Origin: a virus
Lineage: Duplodnaviria; Heunggongvirae; Uroviricota; Caudoviricetes
Length of the DNA stretch: 48,662 nucleotides
IMG/VR virus record: IMGVR_UViG_2547132418_000015
Direction: 5' to 3' (one strand)
The notes beneath the pieces were generated by a model. It saw nothing but the letters and a program-made list of their open reading frames with translations. It had not been told where the DNA came from and ran no database searches. The first letter of the stretch is position 1, and every line of letters begins with the position of its first letter. Made by a program: the position numbers and the translations under genes. This document shows, in pieces, positions 1 through 37,419 of this stretch.

Positions 1-692
1 CAAATACGGCATCAGTTACCGTGAGCTGCAGGAGATGCTGGCTGAACGCGGAGTGAATGTCGATCACTCCACGATTTACCGCTGGGTTCAGCGTTATGCG
101 CCTGAAATGGAAAAACGGCTGCGCTGGTACTGGCGTAACCCTTCCGATCTTTGCCCGTGGCACATGGATGAAACCTACGTGAAGGTCAATGGCCGCTGGG
201 CGTATCTGTACCGGGCCGTCGACAGCCGGGGCCGCACTGTCGATTTTTATCTCTCCTCCCGTCGTAACAGCAAAGCTGCATACCGGTTTCTGGGTAAAAT
301 CCTCAACAACGTGAAGAAGTGGCAGATCCCGCGATTCATCAACACGGATAAAGCGCCCGCCTATGGTCGCGCGCTTGCTCTGCTCAAACGCGAAGGCCGG
401 TGCCCGTCTGACGTTGAACACCGACAGATTAAGTACCGGAACAACGTGATTGAATGCGATCATGGCAAACTGAAACGGATAATCGGCGCCACGCTGGGAT
501 TTAAATCCATGAAGACGGCTTACGCCACCATCAAAGGTATTGAGGTGATGCGTGCACTACGCAAAGGCCAGGCCTCAGCATTTTATTATGGTGATCCCCT
601 GGGCGAAATGCGCCTGGTAAGCAGAGTTTTTGAAATGTAAGGCCTTTGAATAAGACAAAAGGCTGCCTCATCGCTAACTTTGCAACAGTGCC
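1..692 (+). mobile_element. IS26 (IS6 family), 3' part ending with the terminal inverted repeat; the 5' part is at the window end
   Basis: IS6-family transposase ORF followed by TTTGCAACAGTGCC at 679-692, the reverse complement of GGCACTGTTGCAAA at 48309-48322; positions 1-231 are identical to 48432-48662. Confidence 0.93.
2..640 (+). CDS. tnpA: IS26 transposase, C-terminal part (N-terminus at 48372-48662)
   Basis: ORF 35..640 is open back to position 2; translation continues the 48372.. ORF (MNPFKGRHFQRDIILWAVRWY...YRAVDS | RGRTVDFYLSSRRN...). Confidence 0.93.
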   Translation, partial: KYGISYRELQEMLAERGVNVDHSTIYRWVQRYAPEMEKRLRWYWRNPSDLCPWHMDETYVKVNGRWAYLYRAVDSRGRTVDFYLSSRRNSKAAYRFLGKILNNVKKWQIPRFINTDKAPAYGRALALLKREGRCPSDVEHRQIKYRNNVIECDHGKLKRIIGATLGFKSMKTAYATIKGIEVMRALRKGQASAFYYGDPLGEMRLVSRVFEM

Positions 693-1044
693 CTTTTTTG
701 TTCAGGCTGGCATCCCAGATATCCAGATTTTCACGTGCTGTACGCTGTGCTGATGCCCCGGCAATTTTAATTTCGCTGAGGTTATTTTTTATCAGCAGCG
801 CGTTATTGCTCATAATGGCTTTAATGGACAGTGCAAGCTGGTTTAATTTTGTTTTATCCGGTTGAATACCGGCTTCTTTCAGCGTGTTTAATAACTCCGC
901 CTGCACAATATTAAACCAGTCCATGCCGGGCCATGTGATAGCATTATTCCCGTCACCTTCTGAAAACCAGCGAACGATAGCACTACGCTGGGCGGATACG
1001 GGCGGCATGACGGTTACGCCGCTGTCGTTATCAATATAAAACAT
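693..1044 (-). pseudogene. Tail fibre gene (Mu S-like), N-terminal 117 codons only, truncated by IS26
   Basis: ORF 586..1044 starts MFYIDNDSGVTVMPPVSAQRSAIVRWFSEGDG and reads into the IS26 terminal repeat after position 693; sits after the gp48-like gene as in Mu. Confidence 0.75.
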
Positions 1045-1586
1045 TAGTTATCTCCGTCATGGTAAACAAATTTATAAATCTGATGCGCGGGTTTATATTT
1101 CTCCAGTAAACATTCCAGCGCACCCGATTCATAAACACGTAACGGCGTCAGAACATTATCCAGCACCGTTGCGTTGCGATAATTTTTAATACCGTAAATA
1201 TTGACCTGCGTAACCCACTGGCCTTCTGTGGAATCCGTCAGCCTGACGGTAAAACCGTACTGCGCAGCCAGCCATTCATAAAAGCGCCGACTCAGATTGC
1301 CGGTCATACGCATTTTATTCGCGGCAGCCCGCCGGCGTTCGGACAGGGTGCCGTTTTCGCTGGTACAGTCCGGCAACCCCAGAAATGATTCCCACTCACC
1401 CAGATACCAGCGGGATGTGGACGGGAAACGCTCCCGCAGCATTTGCCGCGCATCATCCGCCGCAGTGGTAATCACGTCGCTGATGGCCTGCGCCAGCGCA
1501 GATAATTTGCTGTCGGGGCTTTTATTCCAGGCAAGCCCTGACGGCAGTAATTGCAGAAAGGCCGTCTGCCAGGGTGTTACAGCCAT
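1044..1586 (-). CDS. Mu gp48-like baseplate/tail protein
   Basis: 180-aa ORF between the baseplate J-like gene and the tail fibre gene, as in Mu. Confidence 0.7.
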   Translation of the reverse strand: MAVTPWQTAFLQLLPSGLAWNKSPDSKLSALAQAISDVITTAADDARQMLRERFPSTSRWYLGEWESFLGLPDCTSENGTLSERRRAAANKMRMTGNLSRRFYEWLAAQYGFTVRLTDSTEGQWVTQVNIYGIKNYRNATVLDNVLTPLRVYESGALECLLEKYKPAHQIYKFVYHDGDN

Positions 1587-2659
1587 TCAATTGTCCCCGG
1601 TGTTAACAGTTCCGTATTCTCCGAACGCTGGATCTCTGTCGGGAAACGCACTTCAAAATCATCCAGACCGGTAACACCTGCCACCGCACGGATAATACGG
1701 GAGGGGGCAAGTGCACCGCCCGGCGTCACCTCATTAAAAAACATGGTATTAATGGCGTGAGTAATAGCCTGTTTCAGTTCGGCTGTCTTCGGCGATATAT
1801 AAATCCGTGGATTTACCGGCTTTGCCTTTGGTGCAAATACCGTGACATTTACACCATCAGGCTGTCCGACAATCAGGCCGGTTATCGGGTCAGTATGACC
1901 GGCGATATAATCCGCCACGCGTTCCACATCTGCCGGTTGTGGAAAAATATTGCTCCGGTTATCCATAACAAACGTCACCCCGACTGTGCCACCGCCTTTC
2001 CATGTCGGAAAAGACCAGGCACGGGTAACGCCGCTGACTTCACGTGCCCAGCGAACATAATCAAACTGATTACCGCCGAACGGAGGATACTGGACACGAT
2101 ATTCCAGCCGTGACAGCAGCTCCGCTGCACTCTCAATATCAGCTCCACCGGAAAACCCTTTTACAGTGATGGCATCGGAAACAACACTGGCAACCGGGGT
2201 GATCAACGTTAAAAGGGTATTCTCACCGGTATTTCCTGCCTCACCGGCAGCCAGTGCGGTAACGGTAATTTCCGTCGTTCCTGCACGGTCAATCACAATG
2301 GCATCAGCCAGGCTGTAAACCACACCATCAGCACGCTGCCAGCGTGTACCGGCAGGAATGGTGGTCGCTGCCGATGTGGTGACAGTCAGCGGGCCGCTGG
2401 CGGCTGTCGCCTGTTTGCGGCGCACGCCCCAGAACCGGCAGTGCTCCAGCAACTCATCTTCATCTGCTGTCGACGGGATAATCTGCCGTCCAACCCATGA
2501 AATATGCTCGTGAAAACCGGCAGCAAGGCCCGCCTGAGCATAAGCAATGGCACTCAGCGTTTTTTCACGGGCCTGAGGCCAGCTACCCGGCAGGCGCTGT
2601 TCAATATTCTGTTCTGTACGGGCAATCAGCGATGATAATGTCGGTGGTGAATAAGCCAT
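1577..2659 (-). CDS. Baseplate J-like protein (Mu gp47-like)
   Basis: 360-aa ORF in the conserved baseplate cluster. Confidence 0.8.
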   Translation of the reverse strand: MAYSPPTLSSLIARTEQNIEQRLPGSWPQAREKTLSAIAYAQAGLAAGFHEHISWVGRQIIPSTADEDELLEHCRFWGVRRKQATAASGPLTVTTSAATTIPAGTRWQRADGVVYSLADAIVIDRAGTTEITVTALAAGEAGNTGENTLLTLITPVASVVSDAITVKGFSGGADIESAAELLSRLEYRVQYPPFGGNQFDYVRWAREVSGVTRAWSFPTWKGGGTVGVTFVMDNRSNIFPQPADVERVADYIAGHTDPITGLIVGQPDGVNVTVFAPKAKPVNPRIYISPKTAELKQAITHAINTMFFNEVTPGGALAPSRIIRAVAGVTGLDDFEVRFPTEIQRSENTELLTPGTIEWL

Positions 2660-3097
2660 TTAAACCCCGTTAAATGCTGCTTTAAACTCATAAGGAATAA
2701 CGGAACCATCCGGTAATGTCAGTGCAATGTAGAGGTATAACCAGCCCTGATGTAACTGTTCCGCTCTGACGTTAATCGCACTCACCCGGCCCGCTGTTTT
2801 CAGCCATTCCAGCGCCTCTTCGGCATACCCTCTGGCGCGTTCCAGCGTATCCGGTGTGGCTTTTTCACGTGATAACAGCCACAACCGCGAACCGATGGGG
2901 CGGTCGCGGTAACTGTCACCCCACCATCCACGGCGATCATCTGAACCATCCGGCAGCGTGTCAGAATCCAGCGCGCGCCGGTCGGTAAACAGGGAGATTG
3001 TCACATCGGTCGTCAGACTGTCGTCGGTCAGCATATCAATGCCATCCTGTGCAATATCGCCGCGTCCGTTCGTCCAGATAATGGCTAAATCGGTCAT
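2660..3097 (-). CDS. Baseplate wedge protein (Mu gp46-like)
   Basis: 145-aa ORF between the spike and the J-like gene. Confidence 0.7.
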   Translation of the reverse strand: MTDLAIIWTNGRGDIAQDGIDMLTDDSLTTDVTISLFTDRRALDSDTLPDGSDDRRGWWGDSYRDRPIGSRLWLLSREKATPDTLERARGYAEEALEWLKTAGRVSAINVRAEQLHQGWLYLYIALTLPDGSVIPYEFKAAFNGV

Positions 3098-3687
3098 TGC
3101 ATCGGCCCTGTGGTTCCGCCGCTGTCGCCACGGTGGATATGCTTATCCGTCGATTTGCCATTGATGATGGCATCCGGGGCAGTAATATTGCTGTCGAACT
3201 GGCTTTTACCTTTAACGCCCAGACCTTTCTGGATCTCAACGTCGCCGGTAAACGTGGTTCTGGGTGTATCAACGGTCATGCTTTCATCAGCGTAAATCTC
3301 AACCGTTTTACAGGTAATGATGCAGCGCCCGTCCTTTGTCAGCCTGATACGATGCCCCTCGTGGTGGTAAATGCCTGCATCACCCGGTTCAAGATTTGTC
3401 GGGCGGTAGCGGCGGTCTTCCACCACAACGGCAATCCCCTGATCACGTTGTGCACCCACACAGGCAATCAGCGCCTCTGCGCCCGGCAGAGGAACGCTGA
3501 AATGCCCGTAATTTTGCAGGCGCTCCACTTCATCAGATTCCTCATCATCCAGCAGACCGACCTGCAGGTTCTGAACCTTTCGCCCGTCGTTAATCACGTT
3601 AACAACGGCACGCGCAAGCATCAGACGCACACGACGCATCAGCGGTGTCAGCAGGCGGTTCATGGCGGAATCATTTACTCTTTCCAC
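3094..3687 (-). CDS. Baseplate spike/assembly protein (Mu gp45-like)
   Basis: 197-aa ORF following the gp44-like gene. Confidence 0.75.
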   Translation of the reverse strand: MERVNDSAMNRLLTPLMRRVRLMLARAVVNVINDGRKVQNLQVGLLDDEESDEVERLQNYGHFSVPLPGAEALIACVGAQRDQGIAVVVEDRRYRPTNLEPGDAGIYHHEGHRIRLTKDGRCIITCKTVEIYADESMTVDTPRTTFTGDVEIQKGLGVKGKSQFDSNITAPDAIINGKSTDKHIHRGDSGGTTGPMQ

Positions 3688-4808
3688 GGCGGCGTTTTCT
3701 CCGGGTGTCTGCGATAATAATCTTCAACCAGCGCATCAACGCCATCATTACCATCCCCTCTGGATTTGCGGTCGCTTTCAACCGGCACCAGAAAGCCTTC
3801 GCGTGGTGCAAGGCTGACGCGGGTTTTCAGCCCGTCCTGGTCATTCAGTATCAGGGTGACTTTGCTGACCAGTAATTCCGTGGTTTTGATGGCATATTTC
3901 GAGGCATCAATAGTGACCAGCAGGTTTGGCATCCAGAGTTGCCCGTCCTTGCGAGTCCATCCGTCAATTTCAGCCTCAAAGGTGATGGATTTTGCCAGTC
4001 TGCGGCGTTGCTCACGCAGGGCGCGGGCCTGTGCATCCTTCGCCGTAATTTTGCTGTCGGCAATGATGATCATCGGTCTGTAACGGGTTACATCACTGTC
4101 AGTGGCGGTCCCTTTCCGGGAGACGATACTTTTCGCATCAATATCATCACCCTCAGCGCCGTTTGCGCGGGCATAACCCTTGACAATGTATTCGCTGAAC
4201 CGGTCACGGAAATCTTCGTCAAAATCCACCGTCAGCAGATTTTTCCCGAGGATCAGCTCATCAGTGACCGTACTGGCAGCCCGGCTGAATACCAGCTCTC
4301 CGGCGGCATTGCTGGTCATCAGTACACCACGTGCGCGGGAGGCCCGCACCAGCGCTTCGTAAACCGTTTCTGAATGGTCAAGCGTAAAAGACGGAAACGA
4401 CGCTGCGCTTTCCTTGTCTGACAGCTCCCAGCGAACGGTAACGCCATAAGGGGCGCACAGGTCACGCGCAATCTGCTCCAGTGTGCGGTTTTTCCACTGT
4501 CCGCCACTGTAAACGGCAGCACAGTCAATCAGGTCAGCCGTTTTGTCACGTCCGGCGACAGTGATTTTCATACTGTCAGCGGTCATCTGGCGTCGCCGTG
4601 AATCGATATAACCGGTGCAGACAATCTGCCCCCCGATTTCGAGCGTGAACTTCTTCCCCGGAGCCAGCCCGGATAAATCCGTGCCCGGTGGCACGTTCAC
4701 CCCCAGCTCAAAATATCCGGCTACGGATTCAATCGAGCGGGTGACAGAGACTGACGTCCAGCCGGTAAAAAGCCTGCCATCCGTTCGCAGCGTGACGGTA
4801 TTACTCAT
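3675..4808 (-). CDS. Baseplate hub/tail protein (Mu P-like)
   Basis: 377-aa ORF, synteny with Mu P. Confidence 0.75.
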
Positions 4809-6288
4809 TAATCACCTCAATACTGACACCACCGGGAACAAACAACGGGTTGCTGATACCGTTCCTGCGGGCCAGCCGTTGCCAGTTCCGGCTGTTTCCT
4901 GTGTAACGGTACAGGGCCACCATTGCAGGCATCGTCTCCGGCAGACGGTGCGTTTCACTACCCGCCAGTTGCAGCCCGCGTTTTTCCAGGTCGGCAACAA
5001 CCAGCAGACGCAGTTGCGTAAGCTGAACGCTGTCTGTCGAAAAGCCCTGCTCAGATGCCGTCAGAATGACGGTATCCAGCGCAGCCCCCAGCATGGCGGC
5101 TGTTTTTCCGATATCGGACACACTTTCAAATACCGGGGGCGTGGCTGTACCACTGTCTGAAAAGGATACCTGTGAAAAGCCGCCGTCCGGGGTTATGGCA
5201 GTTAACTGTAACTGTCCCTGTGTGACGGTAGCAGATGTGCTGCTGGCCCCGCTGGCTGTGCCGGTTGTGGTGGACGGGGCATCCAGTACAGGTGCACGGG
5301 TGGCATTATCCCTCCGGCGACTGAAATCCAGTGCCGCAGTCAGTGCCTGGCTGGCAGCTTCTGCCCGGTATGTCTGCGCCGCTGCCAGCATGACGTAGTT
5401 CAGTGTGGCAATATTTTTTTCTGCAACCGGACTGTTGTACGAGGTTGTGATTGCCCCCTGTCTGCCTGCGGTGGCGGCATGGCGACGTTCGAACCGCTGC
5501 GCCAGACGGTTCCAGGTGGAAAATGCTGTCCGGGTATCGCATAACGATGAAACGCCGGATAACGCCCCCATCAGCGAGGAGGCCAGCATGGCTGGTTTAT
5601 TTATCAGGCCGGTCACAGAGCCTTTCATCGCAGAAAGCGATCCCATCAGACCGCTGACAGTCTGCGTAACCCCCAGATTGTCCACCGCATCACTGATATC
5701 ATCGATGACACCGGTTACAGCTTCCATCACGGCGGTTGCCGCCGCAGTGCCATCTTTTACGGTCTGCCAGACAGAGGACAGCGTATCTCCCAGAGAACCG
5801 GTTACAGCAACGGACTGTGCCGGTACGGCTGCACTGGTGTCTGTCTCTGCGTCCGGGGCAGTATCCTGCAACGACGGATAAACGGTAACGGTGAACGCGT
5901 AATAATTCAGTTCATCCGCTTTAGTGCGGCATTCCCATGAATCCACCATGACGGCCACAGTGCCGAAATCAGGATGTACCAGCTCACCGCTACCCGGAGC
6001 ATCAAGAGCATCCATCAGCGCACCCGCTTCATCTCTGGCAGTCTCTGCGTTGCTGTTCAGAATGCAGATGCTGAATGTGCGGGAGCGAAGCTTTTTCCCC
6101 AGGTCGTTGACCCCGCCGGTATCACGTAACGGGTACTCACGTTTAACCAGACGACGTCCGCCAGCCTGTTTTTGCTCCTCGATGACGAGAAACGGCACGT
6201 TACGGAACGTGCCTTTGCCGGTTGTTTTCCTGCCTCCACCGGTTTTATCCCGGACAGCATTAACGGCATTTAAAGCATCTTCAAACAT
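4801..6288 (-). CDS. DNA circularisation protein N-like tail protein (Mu gp43-like)
   Basis: 495-aa ORF directly downstream of the tape measure gene. Confidence 0.75.
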
Positions 6289-6292
6289 GGTT

Positions 6293-8368
6293 TTACCAGC
6301 CTGTAATGTAGTTATCGCCCGCGTAAATATTCAGCCCCATACCATCCTCGGTGACGCGGGAACTGGTCAGACGTAACCCCTCGCCAAGTTCGACGCGCAG
6401 CGAGGCTTCCGCATTCACTTTTTGCTCCTGCGGTTCCTTATCCGTGGCCGTCCACTTCTGATACAGGTCGGTTACAAAACCGCCCAGATACTCCCCGGCG
6501 ACACTGCCCAGCGTGGCACCGGCAACCGTACCCAGCGGTCCGGCAAGGCTGCCAACGGCACCGCCGAGCCATGCACCGGCTGTACTGCCAATTGCGCCTG
6601 CTTTTTCATGGGTTGACGCCTGCTCATCCATCAGGACGGGGGCAAGCTGGAGTGCCCCCATTACCGGGCCACCCAGACGTGACAACGCACGCCCCGCGCC
6701 TTTCCCCATCCAGCCCAGCGCCCCGGCACCTTTTGTCACAACCCGACCGATCGCACTGCCTGCAAGTTTGTTTCCGATACCGGAAAACCCCCCGCCAGCG
6801 GCACGCCCGGCATCAGCCAGCTTTCCGACCGCTCCCGTAACCAGTTGCCCGGCAGCACTGCCTGCAAGCCTGCTCAGAAGACCGGATTTACCGGGTAAAG
6901 GTAATGGTGCAGGCCGTGCCGTTACCGGTACGCCGGGTGGGGGTAATGCCAGAACAGGGCGTGGTGCAGGTAATGCCAGCGGCTGTGGCCCGGACAGCAA
7001 TAACGGCTGGGGGGGGAACAGGGGCGTCATGCCTTTGCCTTTCCGGGTGCGACCACCACGGCCACCGCTTCCGTAACCGCCGAACCCGTGAGGCCAGTTA
7101 GTGACAAACACACGCTGAATGCCGGTGCCCTGCAACAGCGTCTCAGACGTCATGGCATCCGGGACCGGCAGACCTGCCTGCCCACGTTTGCGGTTTCGCA
7201 TCCAGCGCCACATACGACGCCCGGTTTTAAACGGATAACTGGCAACCTGCCATGAGGGGTTTGCCACGGCCCAGCCTGCTCTCAGGGCTTTATTGGCAAG
7301 CCAGACAGACACCAGAACAGCAGCCAGTTTTTTCAGGCTGACAATATTCTGGTCAACCCATGCCAGCGCATCTTTACCCGGTTTCAGCCAGCGCCATAAT
7401 TCCTGCGCCGCGATTTTTACCTTTCTGAACGTGGTCAGGAATTTCTGACCAATGTTTTCTGCCAGTGCGTCCAGCTCCCCGGATTTATCCGCCGCATCGT
7501 GCCAGTTAAGCACCCGGCGCATCTCGTTCTTGATTTCTTCAAAGGGGCCGCTGTTTGCCACCTTCGTGCGAAACTCAAGCAGGTTGCCCTCCATCTGGGC
7601 CATCATCCCGTCCCAGGAGTTCATGGCAGCCGCCTGTGCGCCTTCTGACTGCTCCAGCAGGGTCCGGAATACCGTCAGAATGGCTTTCTTGCCCAGCTTG
7701 CCTTTTTCACCCAGCTTACGGATTTTTTTCTCATCCTTACCCGTTGCATCTGCCAGCACCTTGTAAACGTTGATACCGTAACCGGTCAGCAGGTTGGCGT
7801 CCGCCGCCGTGATTTGCTGGCGGGCAAACATCTGTTTGAACTGTAACGAAGCCCCCTGCGCGGTGGGTAAATCCCAGCCATGCATCGCGCCCTGATTCTG
7901 TAGCATGGTGATGAACTGTTTTACCTGGGCGTCAGTCATGCCAAACGCCGTTGATGTGCGGATTTCCTGCAGAACGCCGCCCAGCCCCCAGGTGGTTTCT
8001 TTTGCGTTCTGCTTCGCCCACGCCATCATGGCCTGTGCTCTGGCCTTATCGCCGTGATACAGCGAGTTCATGGCGATAATCTGCTGCTCACGCTGGGCGG
8101 CGGCACCAATAAACAGTTTATTGGCGGTGTAACCCACGCCAGCGATACCCAGCGCCCCGGCTGACAGCATTCGGAATGTACGGGTTGACAGTGAACCCAT
8201 TCTGTCAATGGCACCAGAAACGCGCACAACCTCCATACGCAGGGCACGAAGGGAACTTTGTCCGCTACGGGACAGGGCGTTTATCTGGTTCGAATACTCG
8301 CGGGAACGCCGGGAAAGATTGCCATTAAGATCAATAATGACAGACGCCTTTAAGCGTTTCCCGGTCAT
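6293..8368 (-). CDS. Tail tape measure protein
   Basis: 691-aa ORF starting MTGKRLKAS with a Gly/Ala/Pro-rich C-terminal part, between chaperone and baseplate genes. Confidence 0.85.
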
Positions 8369-8512
8369 AGAGATTTCCTGATTTAACGGTGATATTGAGA
8401 GAGGGTTTTAGCCTGCTGGCAGTGCCGGAAAAAGCGGGACAGCGGGAGAGACAAGGCCCATTCCGGGCCACTTTTCAGAATAACGCCAATCGCTGTCGCC
8501 GCTTTCTCAATA

Positions 8513-8947: not shown

Positions 8948-8956
8948 TGTTTCCCC

Positions 8957-9313: not shown

Positions 9314-9322
9314 AAATGCTCC

Positions 9323-10822
9323 TTACAGAATGAACTGAACTTGTGCCGCGAAAATGCGGAACTGGTTAATCAGATTCGGGCCGCACAGCACATCAAGACG
9401 GTCTTTGTCGTCCTTGTTACGTGCCACATACAGCTCCTCTTTGAACGTGTCGAAATCCTCGACCAGTCCGGCGTTTTCCCATTCTTCAAACAGTGCCAGC
9501 AGCTCCGTTTTGATCACGGATGGCGTCACCACGGCCTGACCGGTGGCAAAGCGGGTGCCATCACTTGCCAGCTTGTGGTTCGGGAATTTCTGCGTGATGC
9601 GGGTTCGCAGCGAATAACGCAGATAACTCAGCGTGGCGATGGTATTCACGTTCAGATAAGACGGATCGCTGTCACCGTACTTGTTCGTGCGGTACATCGT
9701 GATCATGCGTTCAATCTGCATTTCACCACCATCATTCACGTTAAACGTGGAGATGCCGTCAAACAGCAGCGCATTACGTTCTGACCAGGTGAAACGATCC
9801 CCCACCGCAGGCGGCATTCTTCCGGGCAACGTCAGCGTCTGGAGTGGACGCGCCGGGTCGATGGAAAGCGCCTGGCTGGCAACGGCACACAGGGTGGCGG
9901 CGTACAGATATGACGGTTCCGGTGCACCGGCAATCCCCATACAGGAAATCAGATGGTCATTACGTCTGACACCAAACGTGGAAATATCCCCATACGTGCC
10001 GGACAGCACTGTCACGGCAAAGCCATCAGCCTGACTGACCGGTCCCCAGCGTTCCTGCAATTCAGTGCGTAACAGATTCAGGTTCGGTTCATCGGTATAG
10101 GGCATCACAATATATTTGTATTGCAGATCGCCCATTCCCGCGATACTTGCGCTGATATCCGGGTTGATGTATTTCCGGGATTCGGCTTTGAATGCCGTGA
10201 TAATCCCGTAAGGGGTGGTTTCACCCGCGTAATAGTTCCAGCGCACATCCACGGCAGATAATGCACCCGTAAATTTTGCAGTCAGAACTATATCTGTAGC
10301 GCCGGCATCATCCGGCGTGGTTGAGAGCAATACTGCCTTCACCGGCAAATCAGGATGACCGTTGATTCGGTCAGTCAGCAGGCCAGCCAGCTTCGATCCC
10401 TTGGTACCTGCTGCGACGGATACCGCCAGTCGCTGACCGGCAATGTAAGTCACAAGCGAGCCGTTTTCGGTTGCCGTTCCTGACAGTGTGATTAAACCGA
10501 CAGTAGTTTTAGAGATAGTATTACCGGGGTTTTTCGCCTGCGGAATACACCACAGCTCCGCCACGCGGTTAGCTTTCAGGAATGCATCTGCCATCAGTGC
10601 CAGCATGGAACCCTGACCAAACGCCGCACTGGCCTGTGAGCCGGAACGGATACGGACAGGCACGTCTGGTGCCGCACTGGCCCCCTTATTGCTTTGCCCG
10701 AACATCAGCACGCGCTGACGGGGGGCCGGTGTTCCGCTGACGGCATTACTGTTATCAAATTCGATATACGCCAGAGGAACGCGAACATCTGGCGGGATCG
10801 CGTTAAATGAAATATCGCTCAT
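9323..10822 (-). CDS. Contractile tail sheath protein (Mu L-like)
   Basis: 499-aa [19 protein letters not shown]..., myovirus sheath position. Confidence 0.88.
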
Positions 10823-10828: not shown

Positions 10829-11059
10829 TTACTCCGTTTTTTTCAGCGCAGCGTCGGTATCATCCGCCGTGTTTTCGGTGCTCCCGACTTCAACCACATC
10901 AGTGTTTTCGGTGCTCCCGACTTCAACCACATCACCGGCTACAAGGCGACGTATCCAGAAACTGTTACGGGGCTTTTCTTCTCCCTCAGGCGCCAGTAAT
11001 TCCATCGTGAGCGGGTCACGGATGGTTTTTCCCTCTGCGGGTTTAATTTTCAGCATCAT
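10829..11059 (-). CDS. Small tail-associated protein (Mu gp38-like) with internal 11-aa tandem duplication
   Basis: 76-aa ORF containing DVVEVGSTENT twice. Confidence 0.6.
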   Translation of the reverse strand: MMLKIKPAEGKTIRDPLTMELLAPEGEEKPRNSFWIRRLVAGDVVEVGSTENTDVVEVGSTENTADDTDAALKKTE

Positions 11060-14489: not shown

Positions 14490-14685
14490 GTCCTGCTGCT
14501 CATCATGGTTTGTGAGCAGTCAGTTTGCGGGAGGTGCGGGAAAATCTGGGGTTATGCTATTTGAGTACTGGAGAAAGAAAGTGGAAGGAAGATAAAACGG
14601 GATTCATACACCGTTAAATACCGGTTTAAAAATCCCGTGGCGCGTTTTAAAAAATCTGTGCAGCTGATTTTATGCCTGATTCTGT
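14490..14685. promoter_or_regulatory. G-I intergenic region: hairpin terminator after G, likely late promoter for I, possible strong gyrase site
   Basis: 196-bp non-coding gap about 18.05 kb from the prophage left end; stem CGGGATT...AATCCCG followed by T-run on the minus strand. Confidence 0.4.
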
Positions 14686-15156
14686 TTATTGCCTCAGAGC
14701 GGCGCTGACGCGTTTTCTGATGGCATCAAAAATTTCCTGTTCCCCGGTCTTATCCAGCCCCATATAAGGACGCGCAGGAACGCCTGCCGGGCGGGGTGCC
14801 ATATCGGGTGTACCGCCCCACTGATGAATGGCAGCATAAATTTTTGGCGAACCAATCAGGGCATAATCCTGTCCATAATCGGTGGTAATACTGCGTGCCA
14901 GATCGCCATGCAGGGTAAGAATACTGCCCGGAACAAAACCATGATCCTGACGCCATGCCTGCCACGAATCGCTCCATGCTTCCCAGCCTTTCCCTGTATC
15001 CGGATCTGCCTGCCGTTCAAATGCCTGTTCCGTGGATGACAGCAGCGCCGCAGACATCACACGGGGAATGGCGCGGTCACGTGTGACGGTTCCCAGTTCA
15101 TCCAGCGCAAGCTGAATACGTCGCACATCCACGGCAACGTTCATATCAAGACTCAC
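14686..15156 (-). CDS. Virion morphogenesis protein (Mu G-like)
   Basis: 156-aa ORF following the F-like gene. Confidence 0.8.
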   Translation of the reverse strand: MSLDMNVAVDVRRIQLALDELGTVTRDRAIPRVMSAALLSSTEQAFERQADPDTGKGWEAWSDSWQAWRQDHGFVPGSILTLHGDLARSITTDYGQDYALIGSPKIYAAIHQWGGTPDMAPRPAGVPARPYMGLDKTGEQEIFDAIRKRVSAALRQ

Positions 15157-22068: not shown

Positions 22069-22140
22069 GCTTCCCTGAAAAAATGCGCTGATGGCAGTCT
22101 AAAAAATCAGATGGCAGGTGCGGGATTATGGTGACAGGAA

Positions 22141-22582: not shown

Positions 22583-22594
22583 ATTTTCCCCCGG

Positions 22595-22714: not shown

Positions 22715-22723
22715 GGTGCCCCT

Positions 22724-23297: not shown

Positions 23298-23374
23298 GAT
23301 GATTTTCCCCGGTACGGTTATTCATCACAGGATATTGAGGACGTAAAAAAAGCCGGATTAACCGGCTTTACTGT

Positions 23375-24312: not shown

Positions 24313-24342
24313 TTGCTCACCTCTCATATTAAGGAATGAGAT

Positions 24343-24759
24343 ATGAAAATTGATTATGACGAGATAGCCAGAATATTTGATGTTTTTCTGGAGGCCGACA
24401 CCGCATTCATTCGACTGGAAGATGTCGGCTGGGATTGTTCTCAGCGGCACAGCGACAGCCATCAGAAGCTGGTTTTCCATCTTCTGTTGCTGGTTGAAAA
24501 TGGTTTTATCAGCAACAGATATCTGGAAACAGGCACCGCAAAAAGCATTGGTCTCACCCCAACAAGCCTCGGATATTCATATTCAGGCACCAGTGTCAGA
24601 CTTACACAAGATGGTCATGATTTTGCGAAAGCACTACATCAAAAACCCATTCTTGAGCGCATAAAACAGGACCTTGCCGACGCCCCGATGACGCTCGTAA
24701 CAGACGTCGGCAAACAGTGGTTAACCTCGTTTCTTAAAAAGAAACTCGGGATTGAATAG
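24343..24759 (+). CDS. Hypothetical 138-aa protein on the opposite strand inside the phage early region
   Basis: ATG with AAGGAA ribosome-binding site; diverges from gemA across a 30-bp gap; 3' end overlaps the 24721..25032 gene by 39 nt. Confidence 0.55.
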   Translation: MKIDYDEIARIFDVFLEADTAFIRLEDVGWDCSQRHSDSHQKLVFHLLLLVENGFISNRYLETGTAKSIGLTPTSLGYSYSGTSVRLTQDGHDFAKALHQKPILERIKQDLADAPMTLVTDVGKQWLTSFLKKKLGIE

Positions 24760-25032
24760 TTCCCTGTTCATACGTTGCAGCGCATCAAGGGCGGCGACAG
24801 CCGCCACTTTATTGTTACCATCAGCAATAGTGCGGAGATTTTCAATAATCCAGTGAGGACTCAGTGACTCAGCAATAATGCCAAACCGGTACGCCATGAC
24901 TTCATCAATAGCTTTTTCATGAGACGACTCATATACAAAACTCACAAAGTCATGCACTTCTTTTTTCGGCAAACCACCGGCAATCAGCAGGGCGGCAAGC
25001 TCTTCTGATTTTGAAAATACACCATTATTCAT
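24721..25032 (-). CDS. Hypothetical early-region protein
   Basis: ORF 24721..25047 (GTG); ATG at 25032 with AAGGTG ribosome-binding site is the likely start. Confidence 0.55.
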   Translation of the reverse strand: MNNGVFSKSEELAALLIAGGLPKKEVHDFVSFVYESSHEKAIDEVMAYRFGIIAESLSPHWIIENLRTIADGNNKVAAVAALDALQRMNRELFNPEFLFKKRG

Positions 25033-25033
25033 A

Positions 25034-25727
25034 TCACTCACCTTCACAATTCATGCACGCCGTGTCATCGCCCATATCGCAGTGGTTGCATTTCTGCCCA
25101 CCACAATGAGGGCACTCTTTCAGATATTCAGGGTTTTCATTACCGCAGGTCGGGCATTCCTGTTTCACCGTGGTGAATGTCCCCAGCCACGAATACGAAT
25201 TTTCACCGACTGTCTTTTTCCCCGTTATTTCTGAATCAGAACTAATACAGTGTTTTTCAACCCATGCCACACGTGCTGAATTCAGGTGGCATCTGGCCAA
25301 TTTGCTTTCGTTTCTGTAATGTTTGCTGTCCCGGTTAAATGGCAATTTCTCATTCAGCCCTGCTGAGATAAAGTCCGCATGTAATTGTTCTAATGCGGCT
25401 TCACTGTCTGCACCGGTTGATTCAAAATAATCGTAAGCATTGGCACATAATCCGGCAGCCCGGGTAAATACATCATCGCCCGTCTCCATTGCCCCATTCT
25501 TTAACCATCGGTTGTAGGCTGTATAAAAACTATAAAGTTGCTTTCTGATACAGGTAGTGGCAGTTCCGCCATTAACTGACGCTGGCGTAACATAGCCAGC
25601 TCTGCATAAAGCAGAACGAAGTATATCCAGAACCTGCCAGGCATCTTCTCCTTCAATCACGCTACAGTTTTTGTACACCAGGACGTCCCGGCCACAACTT
25701 TTATCAATACCCCAGTCTTCAAATTTC
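25034..25727 (-). CDS. Hypothetical protein with C-terminal Cys-rich (zinc-ribbon-like) tail
   Basis: ORF 25034..25792; likely GTG start at about 25727 with GGAGG ribosome-binding site overlapping the upstream stop; C-terminus CPTCGNENPEYLKECPHCGGQKCNHCDMGDDTACMNCEGE. Confidence 0.55.
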
Positions 25728-26258
25728 ACAACCAGCCTCCTGCACCACACCCGGTGCTGATGAAAAATCAATGATGAGATAACGCAGTACATGGTCGGTG
25801 ATATTCCAGGCGCTGGAACTGCAAATAAACCGCCCCAGCCGGATATCGATATAAGCCATCACAAAACGGGGCATTCCCTGTTTGCACATCTCGTCATCCA
25901 CTTCTGCAACGATGTGAACGGACTCACAGGTCAGTACGCCTGTCGCAAACTCTTTTGCCAGTGCGGGGATGGTATTACCTTCCACCCAGGGTAATGAGCG
26001 ACGCCAGTTGCACCACACCGCATCATCAACAGCAGGCTGCTCAGTTGCGTTTCGTCTTACCGGCGGCGTCTGACGCGGGCGCGGAACGTCATAAAATCCG
26101 TTGCATTCGGTGAGCACTCCGGCATCAACCGCATCACGCAGGAAATACACCATTGCGGAGGGTGGCATCTGCATTTTTTCAGCCAGAACCCCGCAGGTCA
26201 GGCGTCCGTAAGCCCGTAATAATGTGCTGACACCATTCAGAATTTTTGCATCAACCAT
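25719..26258 (-). CDS. Hypothetical early-region protein
   Basis: 179-aa ORF with GAGGA ribosome-binding site. Confidence 0.6.
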   Translation of the reverse strand: MVDAKILNGVSTLLRAYGRLTCGVLAEKMQMPPSAMVYFLRDAVDAGVLTECNGFYDVPRPRQTPPVRRNATEQPAVDDAVWCNWRRSLPWVEGNTIPALAKEFATGVLTCESVHIVAEVDDEMCKQGMPRFVMAYIDIRLGRFICSSSAWNITDHVLRYLIIDFSSAPGVVQEAGCEI

Positions 26259-26356
26259 GTTTTATTCCTCAGTAATCTGTTTCAGGCGCGAGCAATCCCC
26301 TGACGCATCGCGCCATAATTAAAAGAATGTGAATTAATTAAATATTAATGGTGGTA

Positions 26357-26881
26357 TTAAATACCGGCTTCCTGTTCAAACGGAATAATGGAAAAATCTT
26401 CAATTCCCGATTTAACCGTAATTCCGGCAACACCTGCGACGGCTTTTGGTTCCAGTAAAATCGCCTCCTTGTTGATTTCCTGCTTCGTGCGAATAAAGCG
26501 TTGCAGGCCAAGACGCTCCAGCGTTTCCATCACTGCATCCATACCACGAATACTTACTGATGGTGGACGGCCCCGCCACGATACATCACCGGTGACAAGA
26601 TTCGCCGTCTTCACTTTGCCGCCGTTCGTCAGTTCGTCGCGGTTCGCTTCACACCATCCCTGAACGCCTTTTGAAAGGGTTTCAATATCGGTTTTAATCG
26701 GTGCAATCCGGGCCGCAAATTTCTCCGTAATTTCCGCGATGGCATCATTCATTTCCGTTTCCAGACGTGATGCTTCGCGCTGTAAATCCCCGATGCGTTT
26801 AATATCGGTAATCACCGCATCGCGGTTTTGTGGCACATAAGCCGCTGCGGCACTCTTGATACGTTTTGCTGGTTTAGCCAT
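26357..26881 (-). CDS. gam: Gam-like host-nuclease inhibitor
   Basis: 174-aa ORF MAKPAKRIKSAAAAYVPQNRDAVITDIKRIGDLQREASRLETEMNDAIAEI..., same length and position as Mu Gam. Confidence 0.85.
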   Translation of the reverse strand: MAKPAKRIKSAAAAYVPQNRDAVITDIKRIGDLQREASRLETEMNDAIAEITEKFAARIAPIKTDIETLSKGVQGWCEANRDELTNGGKVKTANLVTGDVSWRGRPPSVSIRGMDAVMETLERLGLQRFIRTKQEINKEAILLEPKAVAGVAGITVKSGIEDFSIIPFEQEAGI

Positions 26882-26900
26882 AAATTAAAGCTCCTGTTAA

Positions 26901-27200
26901 TTAATATCCGCTGTATACAATGCTGGATACAGCTCGATTGCTTAATTCCATCTTTCGGGCAATGACATGAATATCCAGCCCTTCTTTATAAAGTTCACGA
27001 CATAAATATTTGTCGTGTTCACTGATTCGGTATACACACAATGATATTCCGTGCCTTCTGGCATGTGCCCGGAGGGCGGTTGTGGCGACTTTCAGTTTTT
27101 CCGCCATTTCTTCAACGGTCATTTTCCCGACGTTGGCTTCGATAAATTCCCGGTCTTCGCGTGACCAGCGCTTACGATTACACTTCATGTCAGCCACCAT
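26901..27200 (-). CDS. Hypothetical early-region protein, possible helix-turn-helix
   Basis: 99-aa ORF in the semi-essential region. Confidence 0.5.
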   Translation of the reverse strand: MVADMKCNRKRWSREDREFIEANVGKMTVEEMAEKLKVATTALRAHARRHGISLCVYRISEHDKYLCRELYKEGLDIHVIARKMELSNRAVSSIVYSGY

Positions 27201-27620
27201 TCAGTACAGCAGAGGCTCGCGCAGTGATGCCGGAATATGCCGCAGCGATAACTGAACCGCTTTCAGGGCAAGCGAGGAATAACAGCAGCGCGCCCAGCCT
27301 TTTGCCATTAACCGGTAATCGCGCCAGATACGCTGCCACATTTCACGGGCCTCAGGGTCTGATGCGCAGATGTATTCCCGGTCCATGACGTACTCCCATA
27401 AATCCACGTTGAACGCACCGCCAAATGCAATGGCGCGGGATATGCTTTCGCCGCAATAACGCGCACAAATGCTGTAATGGTCGAAAGCAATCAGGTAAGT
27501 CTTTTCACCACAATCATCAACTTTCCGGGCGCAAATAAACTCGCGTAATTCACCACCGTTGTTATTGCGTTCCTGAATTCGGATTAATGCCTGAATTTCA
27601 TTTCGGATTTTGACGTTCAT
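27201..27620 (-). CDS. Hypothetical early-region protein
   Basis: 139-aa ORF. Confidence 0.5.
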   Translation of the reverse strand: MNVKIRNEIQALIRIQERNNNGGELREFICARKVDDCGEKTYLIAFDHYSICARYCGESISRAIAFGGAFNVDLWEYVMDREYICASDPEAREMWQRIWRDYRLMAKGWARCCYSSLALKAVQLSLRHIPASLREPLLY

Positions 27621-27640
27621 TGTCAGCGTTCCTTTGCGAA

Positions 27641-27910
27641 TTAATGTCTGGCTGTATTCGGGTTATAGCTGAATAATTCCCCCTCGGCTTCCAGCCCAAG
27701 CTCCCTGGCTGATTTCAACAACTCCTCGGTCGCTTTTTTAATGATTTCAGGAGCCATGCTCTTGATGATGCCTGCCATTACATCATGTGGCCCGGTCTGG
27801 TCCTCAGGTGAGGATTCTTCCAGTCGCACATTCATATTTACGGCAAAACCTCCATTTTCCTGAAACTCAATATTTCTTGTATTGTTAAATTCAAAGATTA
27901 CTTTTGCCAT
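27641..27910 (-). CDS. Hypothetical early-region protein
   Basis: 89-aa ORF. Confidence 0.5.
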   Translation of the reverse strand: MAKVIFEFNNTRNIEFQENGGFAVNMNVRLEESSPEDQTGPHDVMAGIIKSMAPEIIKKATEELLKSARELGLEAEGELFSYNPNTARH

Positions 27911-27930
27911 TTTTCTTCTCCTTATTGATT

Positions 27931-28176
27931 CTAAATAACTGCGCTGGCTTTTACCTTCGCGCCTTTTACCTGCTTAAAGAAAACTGCGCTGCACCACGGA
28001 CAACATGTCAGGGAATCCCAAATTTCCTTTTCGTGTGAGCATTGCGTCATAATCTGTTCACCGCATCCGGGGCATTTATATGTCGTCAGCGGCACCCCGT
28101 GGCACTGACAGTGTTTAACCCATTCAATATATTTTTCAGCTTTAATACACATCGTTATCTCCAGATAATCTGACAA
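27931..28176 (-). CDS. Hypothetical Cys-rich small protein
   Basis: 81-aa ORF with CQCHG...CPGCG...CCPWC motifs. Confidence 0.5.
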
Positions 28177-28382
28177 CCATTAAGACGGGCCGTCCATACA
28201 GAACGGGCCACCCCGGACTTATGCTCCATAATCCTGACCGCGTTTTTTACCAGTTCCACCGGTGGGTAAGTGATTTCAAGAATCGGACGCGCCACGCCGA
28301 GATATGATTCATTTACATGACTCCCGCGCGCCTGTAACCAGTTCTGCGCATCCGTTGCCATTTTTATATTTCGGGCCATCAT
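28155..28382 (-). CDS. kil: Kil-like protein
   Basis: 75-aa ORF immediately downstream of B, the position of Mu kil. Confidence 0.6.
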
Positions 28383-28397
28383 AATTTCTTCTCCTTC

Positions 28398-29336
28398 TTA
28401 ATTACGCAGCAGCGTTGAAATATCAACGTCCAGGTCTAATTCACGGAAAGCCTGACGCAGATAATCTTCGTTAACACGCTCACCTTTACCGTGAGCCGTC
28501 ATGGCGGCAAGGCGAAGTGAATGATTCAGAATGCGAAGCGCACCTGGTTTCTGCGCAATCTGCTGTAATAACTCCAGTTCATTTTCGCCGTTAATCTGCC
28601 AGGCATCCGCAATAGCTTTTACATCGGCTTTTTTGGTTTTATTAATTGCAGTGCGCTTTGCAATACGGGAAAACAGACGGGCAAATTCAACCGTTCTGTT
28701 ACCCCCCGTCATATTTGAATAAACCCGGTGATTTCCCATCAGCACAAGGCCAGTGCGGGTTGATTCCTGTAACAGGCGGAGTTCTTCCAGAACTTCGGCA
28801 CCAAGATGATCAGCTTCGTCGATGATAACCAGCCCCTGTGTACCTTCAAGGCGACGTCGCAGGGCGCGGGAGAGCGGCCCTTTACGGCGTGGTGCGTCAT
28901 TCATTCCCAGCTCAAACGCCAGTTCAGTAAGACATTCCAGAACGCTGGCACAGGATGGCGTAATGGTGATCATCCAGACATTGTTATTGGTGCGGCGATA
29001 TTCACGGGCCGCTTCGGTTTTGCCCACACCAGGATTGCCACATACAACAGCAATACTTTCAGTCAGGCTGGCAAAACGCATACTTGTCCAGATTTGTTTT
29101 ACCGTCTGCGTTTCCACAAAGCGGGGCGGTTCAGGTAGTTCTGCCACTGCATGATATTTTTCCAGCCAGCGTTGCAGCATTTGTGAAACACGCTCGTTAT
29201 CCCCGTTGTACTTATCATTGATAAAACTACTGATAGTTCCGGTAGAAAGTCCGCTCTCAAGAGCAATTTGTTTAAAGGTGGTTTCTTCATTTTCTACAAG
29301 CGTGCGCAGTCCTGCGCGAATATCGGAAATATTCAT
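28398..29336 (-). CDS. B: Transposition ATPase B
   Basis: 312-aa ORF with Walker A GNPGVGKT, directly downstream of the transposase. Confidence 0.9.
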   Translation of the reverse strand: MNISDIRAGLRTLVENEETTFKQIALESGLSTGTISSFINDKYNGDNERVSQMLQRWLEKYHAVAELPEPPRFVETQTVKQIWTSMRFASLTESIAVVCGNPGVGKTEAAREYRRTNNNVWMITITPSCASVLECLTELAFELGMNDAPRRKGPLSRALRRRLEGTQGLVIIDEADHLGAEVLEELRLLQESTRTGLVLMGNHRVYSNMTGGNRTVEFARLFSRIAKRTAINKTKKADVKAIADAWQINGENELELLQQIAQKPGALRILNHSLRLAAMTAHGKGERVNEDYLRQAFRELDLDVDISTLLRN

Positions 29337-29374
29337 CTGAATAACCTCGTAATTAAATTTTGTTTAAACGTTAA

Positions 29375-31363
29375 TTAAATGGCTTTTTTACGTCTGTTCT
29401 GTTCCAGAATATCCAGCGAATGATTCAGATATTCATCACGCTCAGTTTCGTATTCATCATCACGCTCCTGATTCTTCACCCGTTCCGTATTACCGGAAGG
29501 CCGGAAAATGCCGACAATTCGTGATTCTGGTGCTTCAGGTTCGGCTATCTGCGGCAGCAGCTCTGCCACTTCCAGTGCATCCATTTGTTTCTGTGCCTTA
29601 ATCGCTGCTTTCGTCGCAGATTTCAGTTGTTTCTGGCGGCGGCGATATTCACGGCCTGCCGCAGCATCATTAAACGCAACAGGTGCCAGACATTCCGCTT
29701 CACAGATAAACCGACCGTCCAGGGTGTAACAATAAACCGTGCTGTGTAGCTGCTGCGGATCAAACCTGACCACAACTTTTTTCACGCCGGCATTCATTAA
29801 TGCCATGTTGTAATAAACGTTTTTCGCGCCTTTAAGGGAGCCGCCAACTTTAAGCGTAAACTCGCCTTTGCGTGAAACGTTCACCGCCTCGGCAGGCAGT
29901 AACAGCATCCGTTTTTGTTCTTCGGTTGGCTTACGCACAATCGTTCTGGCGTATTCACGCTCGAAAACATCATCAAACGAGAGTTTGCCCCCGCACATTT
30001 CTGTTTCACGGCCTGTTCTGGCATTGAACATCGCCACACCTTCGGCAAGGTTTTTCAGAAACAGCTCTGCATCAACAGCGCGGTTGCCATAGTTATCAGG
30101 TTTTGCCTGCGGATTTGGCCCCGTATATGCGCCAGCCAGTGCCGGATGCTTATCAACGTATTCCTCAAGCCCACCAACACCGAAAGCACGTTCAACAGGT
30201 TTTGCCTGGCCCCAGCCTTTACCGGCAACAACGCTTGTCCAGTGCATTTTCGCACCCATCAGTAAAAACAATCCCTTTGGATCGTCTTCTTTCACCTTAA
30301 AGCGGTAGCGATTGGGCGCGCCTCCCGTCAGCCATTTATTCGCAGCACCACGGGTGTTATCAATGGTGATGTGAAAATCCTCCGGGATACCGTAGCGAGT
30401 CACAACATCCATGAACGAGAGGCGAATTGAATCAATGTTCTCGCTCACATCGCAGCGCCAGCCCAGAATTTTTCGGGTTTTCACATCCTGCCAGAACCAT
30501 GTTTTCGGGCGGATCACATCACCGTTAAACCAGCGTACAAAGACGTTATGCAGATAACCGTCGCCGTTGATCCACTGCATGGCGTCCAGGTGTTCCACAG
30601 TTCGCTGCTGTGCCGGTATCAGATGCATCAGTGCATGTTCACCTTCACGACAGGCAACAACCATTGCCTCGTCCAGTTGCTGAATCCGGCGAAAGGCCGT
30701 GGCACGGGAGGGAATCCTCCAGCCATGCTCGCGGGCTGCCAGTTCCAGACGCTCATAACATTTGCGGAAGGCGGGTTTTTCCGGTCGCAGATAATCTGCA
30801 ATCAGAAACTGCCAGGCATCCTCGTCAAATTCACTTTTGTGAACATTGCGACGGGATGCACCACGTCCATCAACAAGTGCAGCCGCCCAGTCAGGCTTCG
30901 CAAACTTCTGTACCTGGTAATACTTGTCCCGCAAAGTGGATGCGCTGACCTGGTAATGCCCTGCAACGGTCGCAAAAGCCGTTTTCGTTGAAATCCCCTG
31001 GTTCAGCATTTCGTCTGCAGCCTGAACCGCAGGCAACCATTTTTCAGCAAGTCTGCGCTGGGAATCGCTGGCTTTATCCCATTTGCTCCACAGCACCTCA
31101 CGATCATAATCATGGGCTTCCAGCGTGGGGCGGGCGATTTCAAAACGGCCCAGGCTTGTTTCAATTCTCCCTTGTTGCAACAGAATTTCAGCACGTAATG
31201 CGACAGGGAATGATTTGATATTGAATTCAAATGATACACCTTTAGTCCCTGCAACCTGTCTGAACTCCCAGCCTTCTCTTTGTGCCTTACGTGTAATGTT
31301 AGTGGCTTGCTTTGGTAAACCTGCCAAACCGAGCAACTCTTTTGCTGTATACCATTCTTTCAT
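29375..31363 (-). CDS. A: DDE transposase A
   Basis: 662-aa ORF, Mu A-like over most of its length with a divergent N-terminal DNA-binding region. Confidence 0.93.
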
Positions 31364-31370
31364 AGCGCAC

Positions 31371-31592
31371 CTAGTATCGAGACGGCCAAATATCTTGCGG
31401 TGTCATTCCCAGTGCATCTGCAATGATTTTCTCCGCTTTCGGATATCTCTTATCCAAAGCATTTTTTAATGTTGAAGACGAAAGATGATTAGATCTTCCC
31501 AATTCAGCTAGTGACATATTGCGTTTTCGTAGCTCTGCAACGATGTCAGCTCTGTGCCAATCTTGGCGGTTAGTTCTTTTATTCATATGCAT
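31371..31592 (-). CDS. ner: Ner-like early transcriptional regulator
   Basis: 73-aa ORF ending ...[14 protein letters not shown], first gene of the early operon. Confidence 0.85.
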
Positions 31593-31777
31593 TTCATGTA
31601 ATCCTTTCAGATTCCCCCGCGAGCTACGCTATAAAGTAGCTCACGGCATATCGTGCAATGTAGTGTGGAATCACTTTCAAATCAATAGTGATTTGAAAGG
31701 ATTTGCCATGATTTCATATAACAGCATGATTTTTATATGAATTTATTTTGTCTCTATTGAAATCACTAGGATTTTAA
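31593..31777. promoter_or_regulatory. Divergent early/repressor promoter and operator region
   Basis: Between divergent ner and c; palindromes AGCTACGCTATAAAGTAGCT (31622-31641) and CTTTCAAATCA-ATAG-TGATTTGAAAG (31674-31699). Confidence 0.7.
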
Positions 31778-32302
31778 ATGATGTCTTTTGAAATCAAAGA
31801 ATGGTTTAATGCGAAAGAGCTGGAAGGGATGCCTGGTGTACCAAAGTTGGCGACTAACATTACCAGGAAAGCTGTGGCGGAAGATTGGGTAAAACGTCAG
31901 CGTCACGGTGGGAAAGGTGTCGCTTATGAGTATCACATCAACAGTCTGCCAGAAGAAACACGCAGGGCCATTAAAGGAGCCTCACTTTCTGATAAACCAG
32001 TGCATACATCAATCGCCCATACAGTTGATGAGAGGCTAATTTATGCAATGAGCTTCTTAACACCAGATGAGCAGGCCGCAGCTGTGGAGATCATTCGTGT
32101 GGCAGGGATTAAAGGACTTATGCCTACAATTGTCAGTAAAGATAAGGCATTAGAGGCATTAGGGATTACTGTGGAGCAACAGAAAACCCTGCAAACTCTT
32201 CAGGCATTACCACCGGAAAAAGTGAGAGAGATTTTGTCTCAGTATGAAGGCAAAGAACATAATTTCCCTGTAAGAGAAAACGATGTAAAGAAAGCTGTAT
32301 AA
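31778..32302 (+). CDS. c: Repressor c (Mu/D108 family)
   Basis: 174-aa ORF with AGGA ribosome-binding site; C-terminus ...KVREILSQYEG...KKAV as in Mu-type repressors; divergent from ner. Confidence 0.85.
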   Translation: MMSFEIKEWFNAKELEGMPGVPKLATNITRKAVAEDWVKRQRHGGKGVAYEYHINSLPEETRRAIKGASLSDKPVHTSIAHTVDERLIYAMSFLTPDEQAAAVEIIRVAGIKGLMPTIVSKDKALEALGITVEQQKTLQTLQALPPEKVREILSQYEGKEHNFPVRENDVKKAV

Positions 32303-32641
32303 CAACCAGGTAATAGCTAAGACATAAACTTCACTCCAGGCAATTACATATGTAAGATACCCAAACAGTGATGATTGTTTTTGACACACATCACTTGCTG
32401 AAAGCCTGGTTGTTACCGTTTTTGAAGCATTTTTGAAGCTGTACTTGAAATGATGCGTGAAGTAATTGCTTTTCGTGTCTTTAATGAATCAAAAGCTGTT
32501 TCCAACAATCTTTCGCGTTTCAAGATGTAACGGCTAAAATCTGTCCTACAGGCTTGCAAGCCCCACTAAATCTAATCCCGCCAAATCCCGAATAATCCAA
32601 TGTCCTCCCGGTTTTTTTCGTACTTCAAGTGAATCAATACA
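32303..32641 (-). other. Prophage left end with transposase binding sites; terminus at 32641
   Basis: Minus strand from 32641 reads TGTATTGATTCACTTGAAGTACGAAAAAAACCGGGAGGACATTGG...; repeated TTTTCGT-type motifs. Confidence 0.85.
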
Positions 32642-37417: not shown

Positions 37418-37419
37418 AA

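Follow-up and report, generated by a model that had tools for sequence, protein, structure and literature searches.

A D108-type prophage in an IncR plasmid backbone

The window analysed here is a stretch of 48,662 nucleotides, listed in IMG/VR as IMGVR_UViG_2547132418_000015. It is the whole of a draft contig, APZN01000103.1 of assembly GCA_000358145.2 (48,662 bp), with which it was matched through its exact MuA-allele protein. Positions 693-32641, on the minus strand, hold a prophage of the Mu/D108 type from its left end down to the tail-fibre gene S, where it is cut by a copy of IS26; the DNA on the other side of the left end (32642-48308) is an IncR plasmid backbone, and a second copy of IS26 closes the contig. 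The data show that Mu transposed into an IncR plasmid, and they make it likely that an IS26 event then broke the prophage in S and that the prophage is now grounded.

Alignment to known phages confirmed that window 693-32641 belongs to a Mu/D108-type prophage, genus Muvirus. In a megablast search against phage records, Mu and D108 were the top matches of window 692-24312, at 96.8%, and D108 was the top match across the left 8.6 kb. Direct alignment to the two genomes bore out the relationship that a first reading, made from the letters alone (hereafter the sequence-only reading), had proposed: window 692-24312 corresponds to Mu 8233-31810 (96.7%) and to D108 8282-31859 (96.6%), and window 25736-32641 corresponds to D108 1-6906 (98.4%). 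By these alignments, the early region is of the D108 type and the prophage is equally near Mu and D108 from the middle operon (gemA, mor) through the late genes.

The left end, attL (32382-32641, minus strand), is identical to D108 1-260 at 259 of 260 nucleotides and is thus intact, as the sequence-only reading had it. The left terminus, 5'-TGTATTGATTCAC..., carries the terminal TG of Mu and stops exactly at 32641, and these first 260 nucleotides cover the positions annotated as MuA-binding sites in the D108 record. They form the outer part of a D108-type early region (25736-32641, minus strand) that comprises gp11, gam, gp9-gp6, kil, B, A, ner, the operator region, c and attL. Gene A (29375-31363) encodes MuA, the DDE transposase, a protein of 662 residues that is 98.8% identical to its D108 counterpart, with eight substitutions. 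Gene B (28398-29336) encodes the target-activating ATPase MuB, 312 residues long and 100% identical to D108; both A and B are free of stops. The ner gene (31374-31592) is also 100% identical to D108, the c repressor (31778-32302, plus strand) carries two substitutions and the operator region shows 5 mismatches in 185 nucleotides. Relative to Mu, identity over this immunity region falls to about 80%, and its divergent c/ner arrangement is that of D108. The kil and lys products are 100% identical to the D108 proteins.

The middle and late region (1044-24312, minus strand) is likewise intact from gemA and mor to gp48, and includes C and the lysis, terminase, portal, head, sheath, tube, tape-measure and baseplate genes. 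In translated searches with all 56 D108 proteins, those from c to gp48, save gp12 and gp14, were recovered at full length with neither stops nor frameshifts, and the gemA-to-gp48 proteins follow one another as in D108. The Mu gene order down to S had been read correctly from the letters, and so had the presence of the lysis genes along with c, ner, A and B, all of which are intact. The region of the strong gyrase site between G and I (about 14490-14690) is conserved, with two substitutions relative to Mu. Divergence from D108 is seen in the tail module: the sheath is 90% identical, the tape measure is 92% identical, and gp38 (76 residues here, 68 in D108) aligns with an 11-residue gap. Such divergent proteins suggest mosaic exchange in the tail module. 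The more diverged tail proteins are encoded at 6293-8368, 9323-10822 and 10838-11059, and no contig other than APZN01000103.1 was found to carry this tape-measure allele.

The left end abuts an IncR target site

Beyond the left end, window 32642-48308 is colinear, at 98.8-99.7%, with plasmids of Klebsiella, E. coli and Salmonella that are typed as IncR by MOB-suite, for example NZ_CP039605.1. The IncR gene set (repB with iterons, parAB, umuDC, a resolvase and vapBC) is present in the conserved order. Together with the Mu and D108 alignments, this backbone upholds the earlier proposal of a Mu/D108-type prophage inserted in a plasmid.

At the Mu junction, related IncR plasmids are uninterrupted and read ...CAGGCTCATGT|GTGCTGATTTATG... 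(...CATGT|GTGCTGATTT). In the window, the Mu terminal nucleotide abuts GTGCTGATTT directly, with the target pentamer GTGCT at the left-end flank (32642-32646, plus strand). Because the join falls precisely on the last nucleotide of Mu and the site is continuous in relatives, it is a genuine junction of Mu transposition into the plasmid; the comparison shows Mu inserted 13 bp past the stop codon of a Rep3-family gene remnant. A right-end junction, where present, is predicted to run from ...CAGGCTCATGTGTGCT into the Mu right end, which would give a GTGCT duplication.

IS26 cuts the prophage within the tail-fibre gene S

The truncated tail-fibre gene starts at 1044 and extends on the minus strand to 693, so that 117 codons plus one or two nucleotides remain before IS26, in agreement with the 117 codons counted in the sequence-only reading. 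S could be aligned with D108 over residues 1-118 only, and the break lies directly against an IS26 inverted repeat at 692. The last Mu base is 693; position 692 is ambiguous (G/C), being common to Mu and the inverted repeat. The frame of the S fragment runs on into IS26 to form a fusion open reading frame (ORF) of 152 residues (586-1044), for which an exact-protein look-up returned no record.

Distal S, U, U', S', gin, com, mom, gp56 and attR had no match anywhere in the 48.6-kb window, and neither D108 31860-37235 nor Mu 31811-36717 had a DNA match in the contig. The window thus contains neither a complete S/U tail fibre with its invertible G segment and gin, nor, anywhere on this molecule, the inverted right terminus attR. 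The right side is absent from the contig, but the claim that it is absent and replaced by IS26 says more than the window can show, as the contig ends inside IS26.

The IS26 sequence next to S is the 3' part of the element (nucleotides 129-820; window 1-692, plus strand). It holds the last 201 codons of tnp26 (35-640) together with the 14-bp right inverted repeat GGCACTGTTGCAAA (679-692), and it is 100% identical to the full IS26 of a sibling contig described below. At the other end of the window lies the 5' part of a second IS26 (nucleotides 1-354; window 48309-48662, plus strand), in the same orientation as the left copy and with its inverted repeat at 48309-48322. Window 1-226 and 48437-48662 are 100% identical over 226 bp, both being IS26 nucleotides 129-354 in direct orientation. 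The complete copy read in the sibling contig is 820 bp long and encodes a product of 234 residues, as expected of IS26, an element with 14-bp inverted repeats GGCACTGTTGCAAA and a Tnp26 of that length. Since APZN01000103.1 stops in the interior of this multi-copy element at either end, the assembler broke the sequence at the repeat, and the sequence past IS26 is invisible in the window.

A simple IS26 insertion is expected to leave an 8-bp target duplication. No such duplication is shared by the sequences that adjoin the two IS26 ends seen in the window, CAGTCGTTAT and CTTTTTTG, which is consistent with a deletion or a cointegrate rather than a simple insertion. The right-hand copy cuts a second group II-type reverse-transcriptase gene (RVT_1; 47277-48308), and this junction between truncated ltrA and IS26 (48308/48309) pre-exists in the E. 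coli plasmid NZ_CP010149.1. In that plasmid, mef(B), sul3, qacL, aadA1 and cmlA1 come after IS26.

A sibling contig reads through IS26

A second assembly (GCA_000355295.1) contains a contig of 49,238 bp, AQEY01000006.1, which we took to be the same contig as the 49,238-bp IMG/VR UViG_2534681703_000016. It shows 5 differences from the window in 16,288 aligned bases and holds both junctions, that of IS26 with the S fragment and that of the Mu left end with IncR. Past the S fragment, it spans a complete IS26 of 820 bp and then enters, for 74 bp, a transposase gene of the IS110 family that E. coli plasmids are known to carry. The sequence-only reading had looked to alternative assemblies for a contiguous right end, and in this one the IS110-family gene stands in the place of distal S. 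With such a flank, a simple IS26 insertion into S becomes improbable and a real rearrangement is favoured. Comparison of the two contigs thus shows that the IS26 junction inside S is not a simple insertion.

The 226-bp identity of the contig ends had also raised the idea of a circular plasmid of 48,436 bp with a single IS26. This candidate was rejected: the left flank of the S-adjacent IS26 differs in the sibling, and the same IS26 differs from the right-hand copy of the window by one base, within nucleotides 1-128.

The junction of the IS110-family transposase gene with IS26 occurs in no PLSDB record, and both junctions of the window are absent from PLSDB and from the complete E. coli genomes. 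The two junction sequences had no match in the genome-contig and metagenome-contig collections either. A literature search found no paper on this element or on these accession prefixes.

A common wild lineage on an unusual carrier

The prophage lineage is that of a common wild E. coli Muvirus, and both the kinds of element and the cutting process are known. Exact copies of gp48, c and the variable-region proteins occur in many draft and complete E. coli genomes. Look-ups of the common alleles (gp48, c and the 231-residue protein) gave only long chromosomal contigs, and those of the rarer MuA, tape-measure and N alleles gave the contig of the window and its siblings. The c allele was found in more than 4,000 collection blocks, a spread consistent with a functional repressor. 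The nearest intact copy that we found, Logan contig ERR164833_59, has 4 mismatches in 10,207 nucleotides, and its S gene does not stop at the breakpoint but goes on to the G-segment repeat. Two further contigs, AQCM01000023.1 and APWZ01000114.1, encode an identical MuA protein, with DNA only 99.6% identical to the window; in AQCM01000023.1, the left end adjoins aldo-keto reductase and LysR genes, marking a chromosomal insertion of a related prophage.

Among 5,426 complete E. coli genomes, a MuA gene of this type was present at 102 places in 89 genomes, all of them chromosomal and none on plasmids. As plasmids account for only a few percent of the DNA in a genome, finding none in 102 would not amount to a strong depletion. 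Among the 72,556 plasmids of PLSDB, no IncR backbone was seen to carry a Mu-type prophage, and Mu-like DNA was seen only in CP088505.1 and in the IncY plasmid NZ_CP012497.1.

The variable block and the plasmid backbone

Between the early and middle regions lies a variable early-operon block (24313-25735, minus strand) with no Mu or D108 DNA match except for a gp13-like stretch of 183 bp (25023-25205). Its ORFs encode 231 and 103 residues, to which an antisense ORF of 138 residues is added (24343-24759, plus strand); none gave a meaningful Pfam or PADLOC family. Because this block holds other genes instead, gp12 and gp14 of D108 found no match in the window in the translated searches. The genes of the block are also present in chromosomal E. 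coli Mu-like prophages, and the counterpart of a variable-region ORF in CP088505.1 is annotated DUF2513.

On the plasmid side, the Mu end is followed by the remnant of the Rep3-family initiator gene (32642-32957, minus strand), with a C-terminal fragment of 45 residues (32655-32792), the 5' side of which is cut by an IS1-like element (32958-33725, minus strand). In the IncR backbone that follows (33726-48308), a group II intron (33822-35639, minus strand) includes intron-encoded protein ORFs (33822-35409) and ribozyme D1-D4 (35414-35639; Rfam, 186 bits); D5-D6 had no match at the Rfam gathering threshold. The reverse-transcriptase gene downstream of the ribozyme is apparently split into two ORFs (34807-35409 and 33822-34832) and ends 96 bp from IS1. 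Further on come umuD (35715-36146), umuC (36146-37417), parB (37499-38476) and parA (38473-39678). Beside repB (40612-41493), a 36-bp unit is directly repeated about 16 times (40024-40596), presumably as the IncR iterons, and an ORF of 113 residues called within this array is probably spurious. A resolvase/integrase gene (42556-43332) and vapBC (about 45050-45690, the vapB start being approximate) complete the set. At 45835-45914, a 40-bp unit is perfectly duplicated in tandem; it is apparently single-copy in NZ_CP039605.1.

In NZ_CP010149.1, the other side of the Mu target is occupied by about 720 bp of tandem repeats of about 37 bp (5240-5960), then by IS5 and stbA. The repeat array, IS5 and stbA that lie left of the Mu target in relatives have no counterpart in the window; this part of the backbone was thus lost or moved along with the Mu right end.

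Proposed history of the element

The following scenario is probable. As the sequence shows, a wild E. coli Muvirus with a D108-type immunity and early region entered an IncR plasmid by ordinary MuA transposition. Subsequently, an IS26-mediated event would have broken the prophage in S at codon 117/118. Both replicative transposition of IS26 and recombination between two IS26 copies are well established. As to the mechanism of the break, we infer either intramolecular replicative transposition, which would produce an adjacent deletion, or formation of a cointegrate followed by IS26 x IS26 recombination. The event would have joined the S fragment to a copy of IS26 that is flanked on its far side by part of an IS110-family transposase gene. 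It would also have cut this segment off from the backbone left of the target and from the rest of the phage (distal S, U, the G segment, gin, com/mom and attR). Deletion of the separated right part, from distal S to attR with the adjoining backbone, is most likely.

Several observations weigh against this scenario. Both ends of the contig lie in IS26, so that it does not by itself demonstrate that the genome has lost the right end, and the read-through of IS26 in the sibling is that of a draft assembly, in which the repeat could have been wrongly resolved. Moreover, the contig holds only the left-flank copy of GTGCT, the right junction being outside it. Last, GTGCT departs from the preferred Mu target consensus, N-Y-(G/C)-R-N, which is a preference only.

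Other histories may be considered. The prophage might have been split rather than truncated, if an IS26 cointegrate or inversion opened the IncR::Mu molecule within S and the distal part (distal S, the G segment, gin, mom and attR) persists beside another IS26, at a different place of this replicon or genome. The bounding IS26 copies, direct and lacking matching 8-bp flanks, have cointegrate geometry too; the remaining contigs, past the IS26 ends, are unseen; and the missing repeat array, IS5 and stbA look as if they had travelled with the right end. Were the prophage split, both Mu ends could share one molecule, flanking an enlarged Mu. However, the right end was positively detected nowhere. 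Distal-S sequence in IMG/VR lies on six contigs, none of them a viral contig of the sibling genome (IMG 2534681703); this is a weak argument, as short fragments may be unlisted. We consider a split rather unlikely.

A simple IS26 insertion into S, with the rest of Mu just beyond and the truncation reduced to a contig break at a repeat, would agree with a window that starts within IS26 and with the common breakage of draft assemblies at this element. It is hardly credible in view of the sibling, which crosses the 820-bp IS26 and enters a transposase gene of E. coli plasmids, not S. As for a chimeric assembly, in which a chromosomal Mu prophage was falsely joined to plasmid DNA, it would agree with the chromosomal location of such prophages at all 102 places where they were seen in complete E. 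coli genomes. But the join is exact at the Mu terminal nucleotide, in a site that IncR relatives carry unbroken; the Mu/IncR junction offers no repeat that an assembler could collapse; and both junctions recur, a few single-nucleotide polymorphisms apart, on one contig of a second assembly. A chimera is extremely unlikely on these grounds.

Functional consequences

If the prophage was cut by IS26 as proposed, established Mu biology predicts that it is grounded. For Mu to transpose, a single supercoiled molecule must carry attL and attR, inverted with respect to each other, as well as the enhancer. With attL alone, MuA and MuB would form no left-right transpososome and replicative transposition would not occur; without S and U, no adsorbing, infective particles would be made. 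The loss of transposition and of complete tail fibres, which the sequence-only reading had also proposed, is most likely, provided that the right end is truly gone. Since neither c nor its operators nor ner is damaged, the plasmid should keep kil, A and B of the early operon silent and should confer D108-type superinfection immunity. The remaining 31.9 kb would then be passenger DNA, open to recombination with incoming Mu-like phages.

It is improbable, in our opinion, that the element has been kept because it is useful, either as a D108-type immunity module that guards plasmid hosts from Mu-like phages or as a helper-dependent transducing module. The transducing version rests on the intact pac/attL, terminase, head and tail genes beside IS26-bounded plasmid DNA; if true, derepression would lead to the packaging of headfuls from attL across IS26 into the adjacent plasmid DNA. 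For annotation, the case calls for caution: a contig that ends in IS26 does not prove that the genome lacks whatever part of an element the contig is missing.

Comparison with known systems

The prophage shares with D108 (GQ357916) and Mu (AF083977) the gene order from c to S, attL, the MuA sites and the gyrase-site region. It differs from both in being plasmid-borne and in lacking distal S, U, U'/S', gin, com, mom, gp56 and attR, and from D108 in having other genes for gp12 and gp14 and a diverged sheath, tape measure and gp38. Its kin are the wild chromosomal Mu-like prophages (strains W and E24377A, many drafts, SfMu and the Yersinia vB_YpM phages). These prophages retain both ends and are complete, and the retrieved examples lie beside chromosomal genes or on chromosomes, whereas in the window the prophage lies on a plasmid and has been cut by IS26.

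Mu-type early genes also occur on two other records labelled as plasmids, CP088505.1 and NZ_CP012497.1. CP088505.1 (pE16EC1016-8, 52 kb) carries a complete Mu in a lambdoid fragment (integrase, RecT, adenine methylase), has no replicon type listed and is probably an excised or misassigned prophage circle, not a plasmid. NZ_CP012497.1 is an IncY-typed plasmid with a distant Mu-like prophage, at about 85% identity. Neither prophage sits in an IncR backbone, and for neither is an IS26 cut annotated in the region examined.

The adjacent deletions and cointegrates of IS26 (IS6 family) have in common with the window an IS26 end set against foreign DNA with no 8-bp duplication. The likeness to IS26 reshuffling extends to the several direct-oriented IS26 copies that bound the segment and to the truncated ltrA-IS26 junction that already exists in relatives. 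Compared with the usual reshuffling, the mechanism is ordinary and only the victim, a transposable phage, is uncommon. The window thus offers a rare natural case of Mu-type transposition into a clinical-type plasmid backbone, and one of a mobile element disabling another: IS26 cuts the transposable phage, and the repressor and most structural genes remain on the plasmid. What is new is this particular combination and its location, rather than a principle or a biological question.

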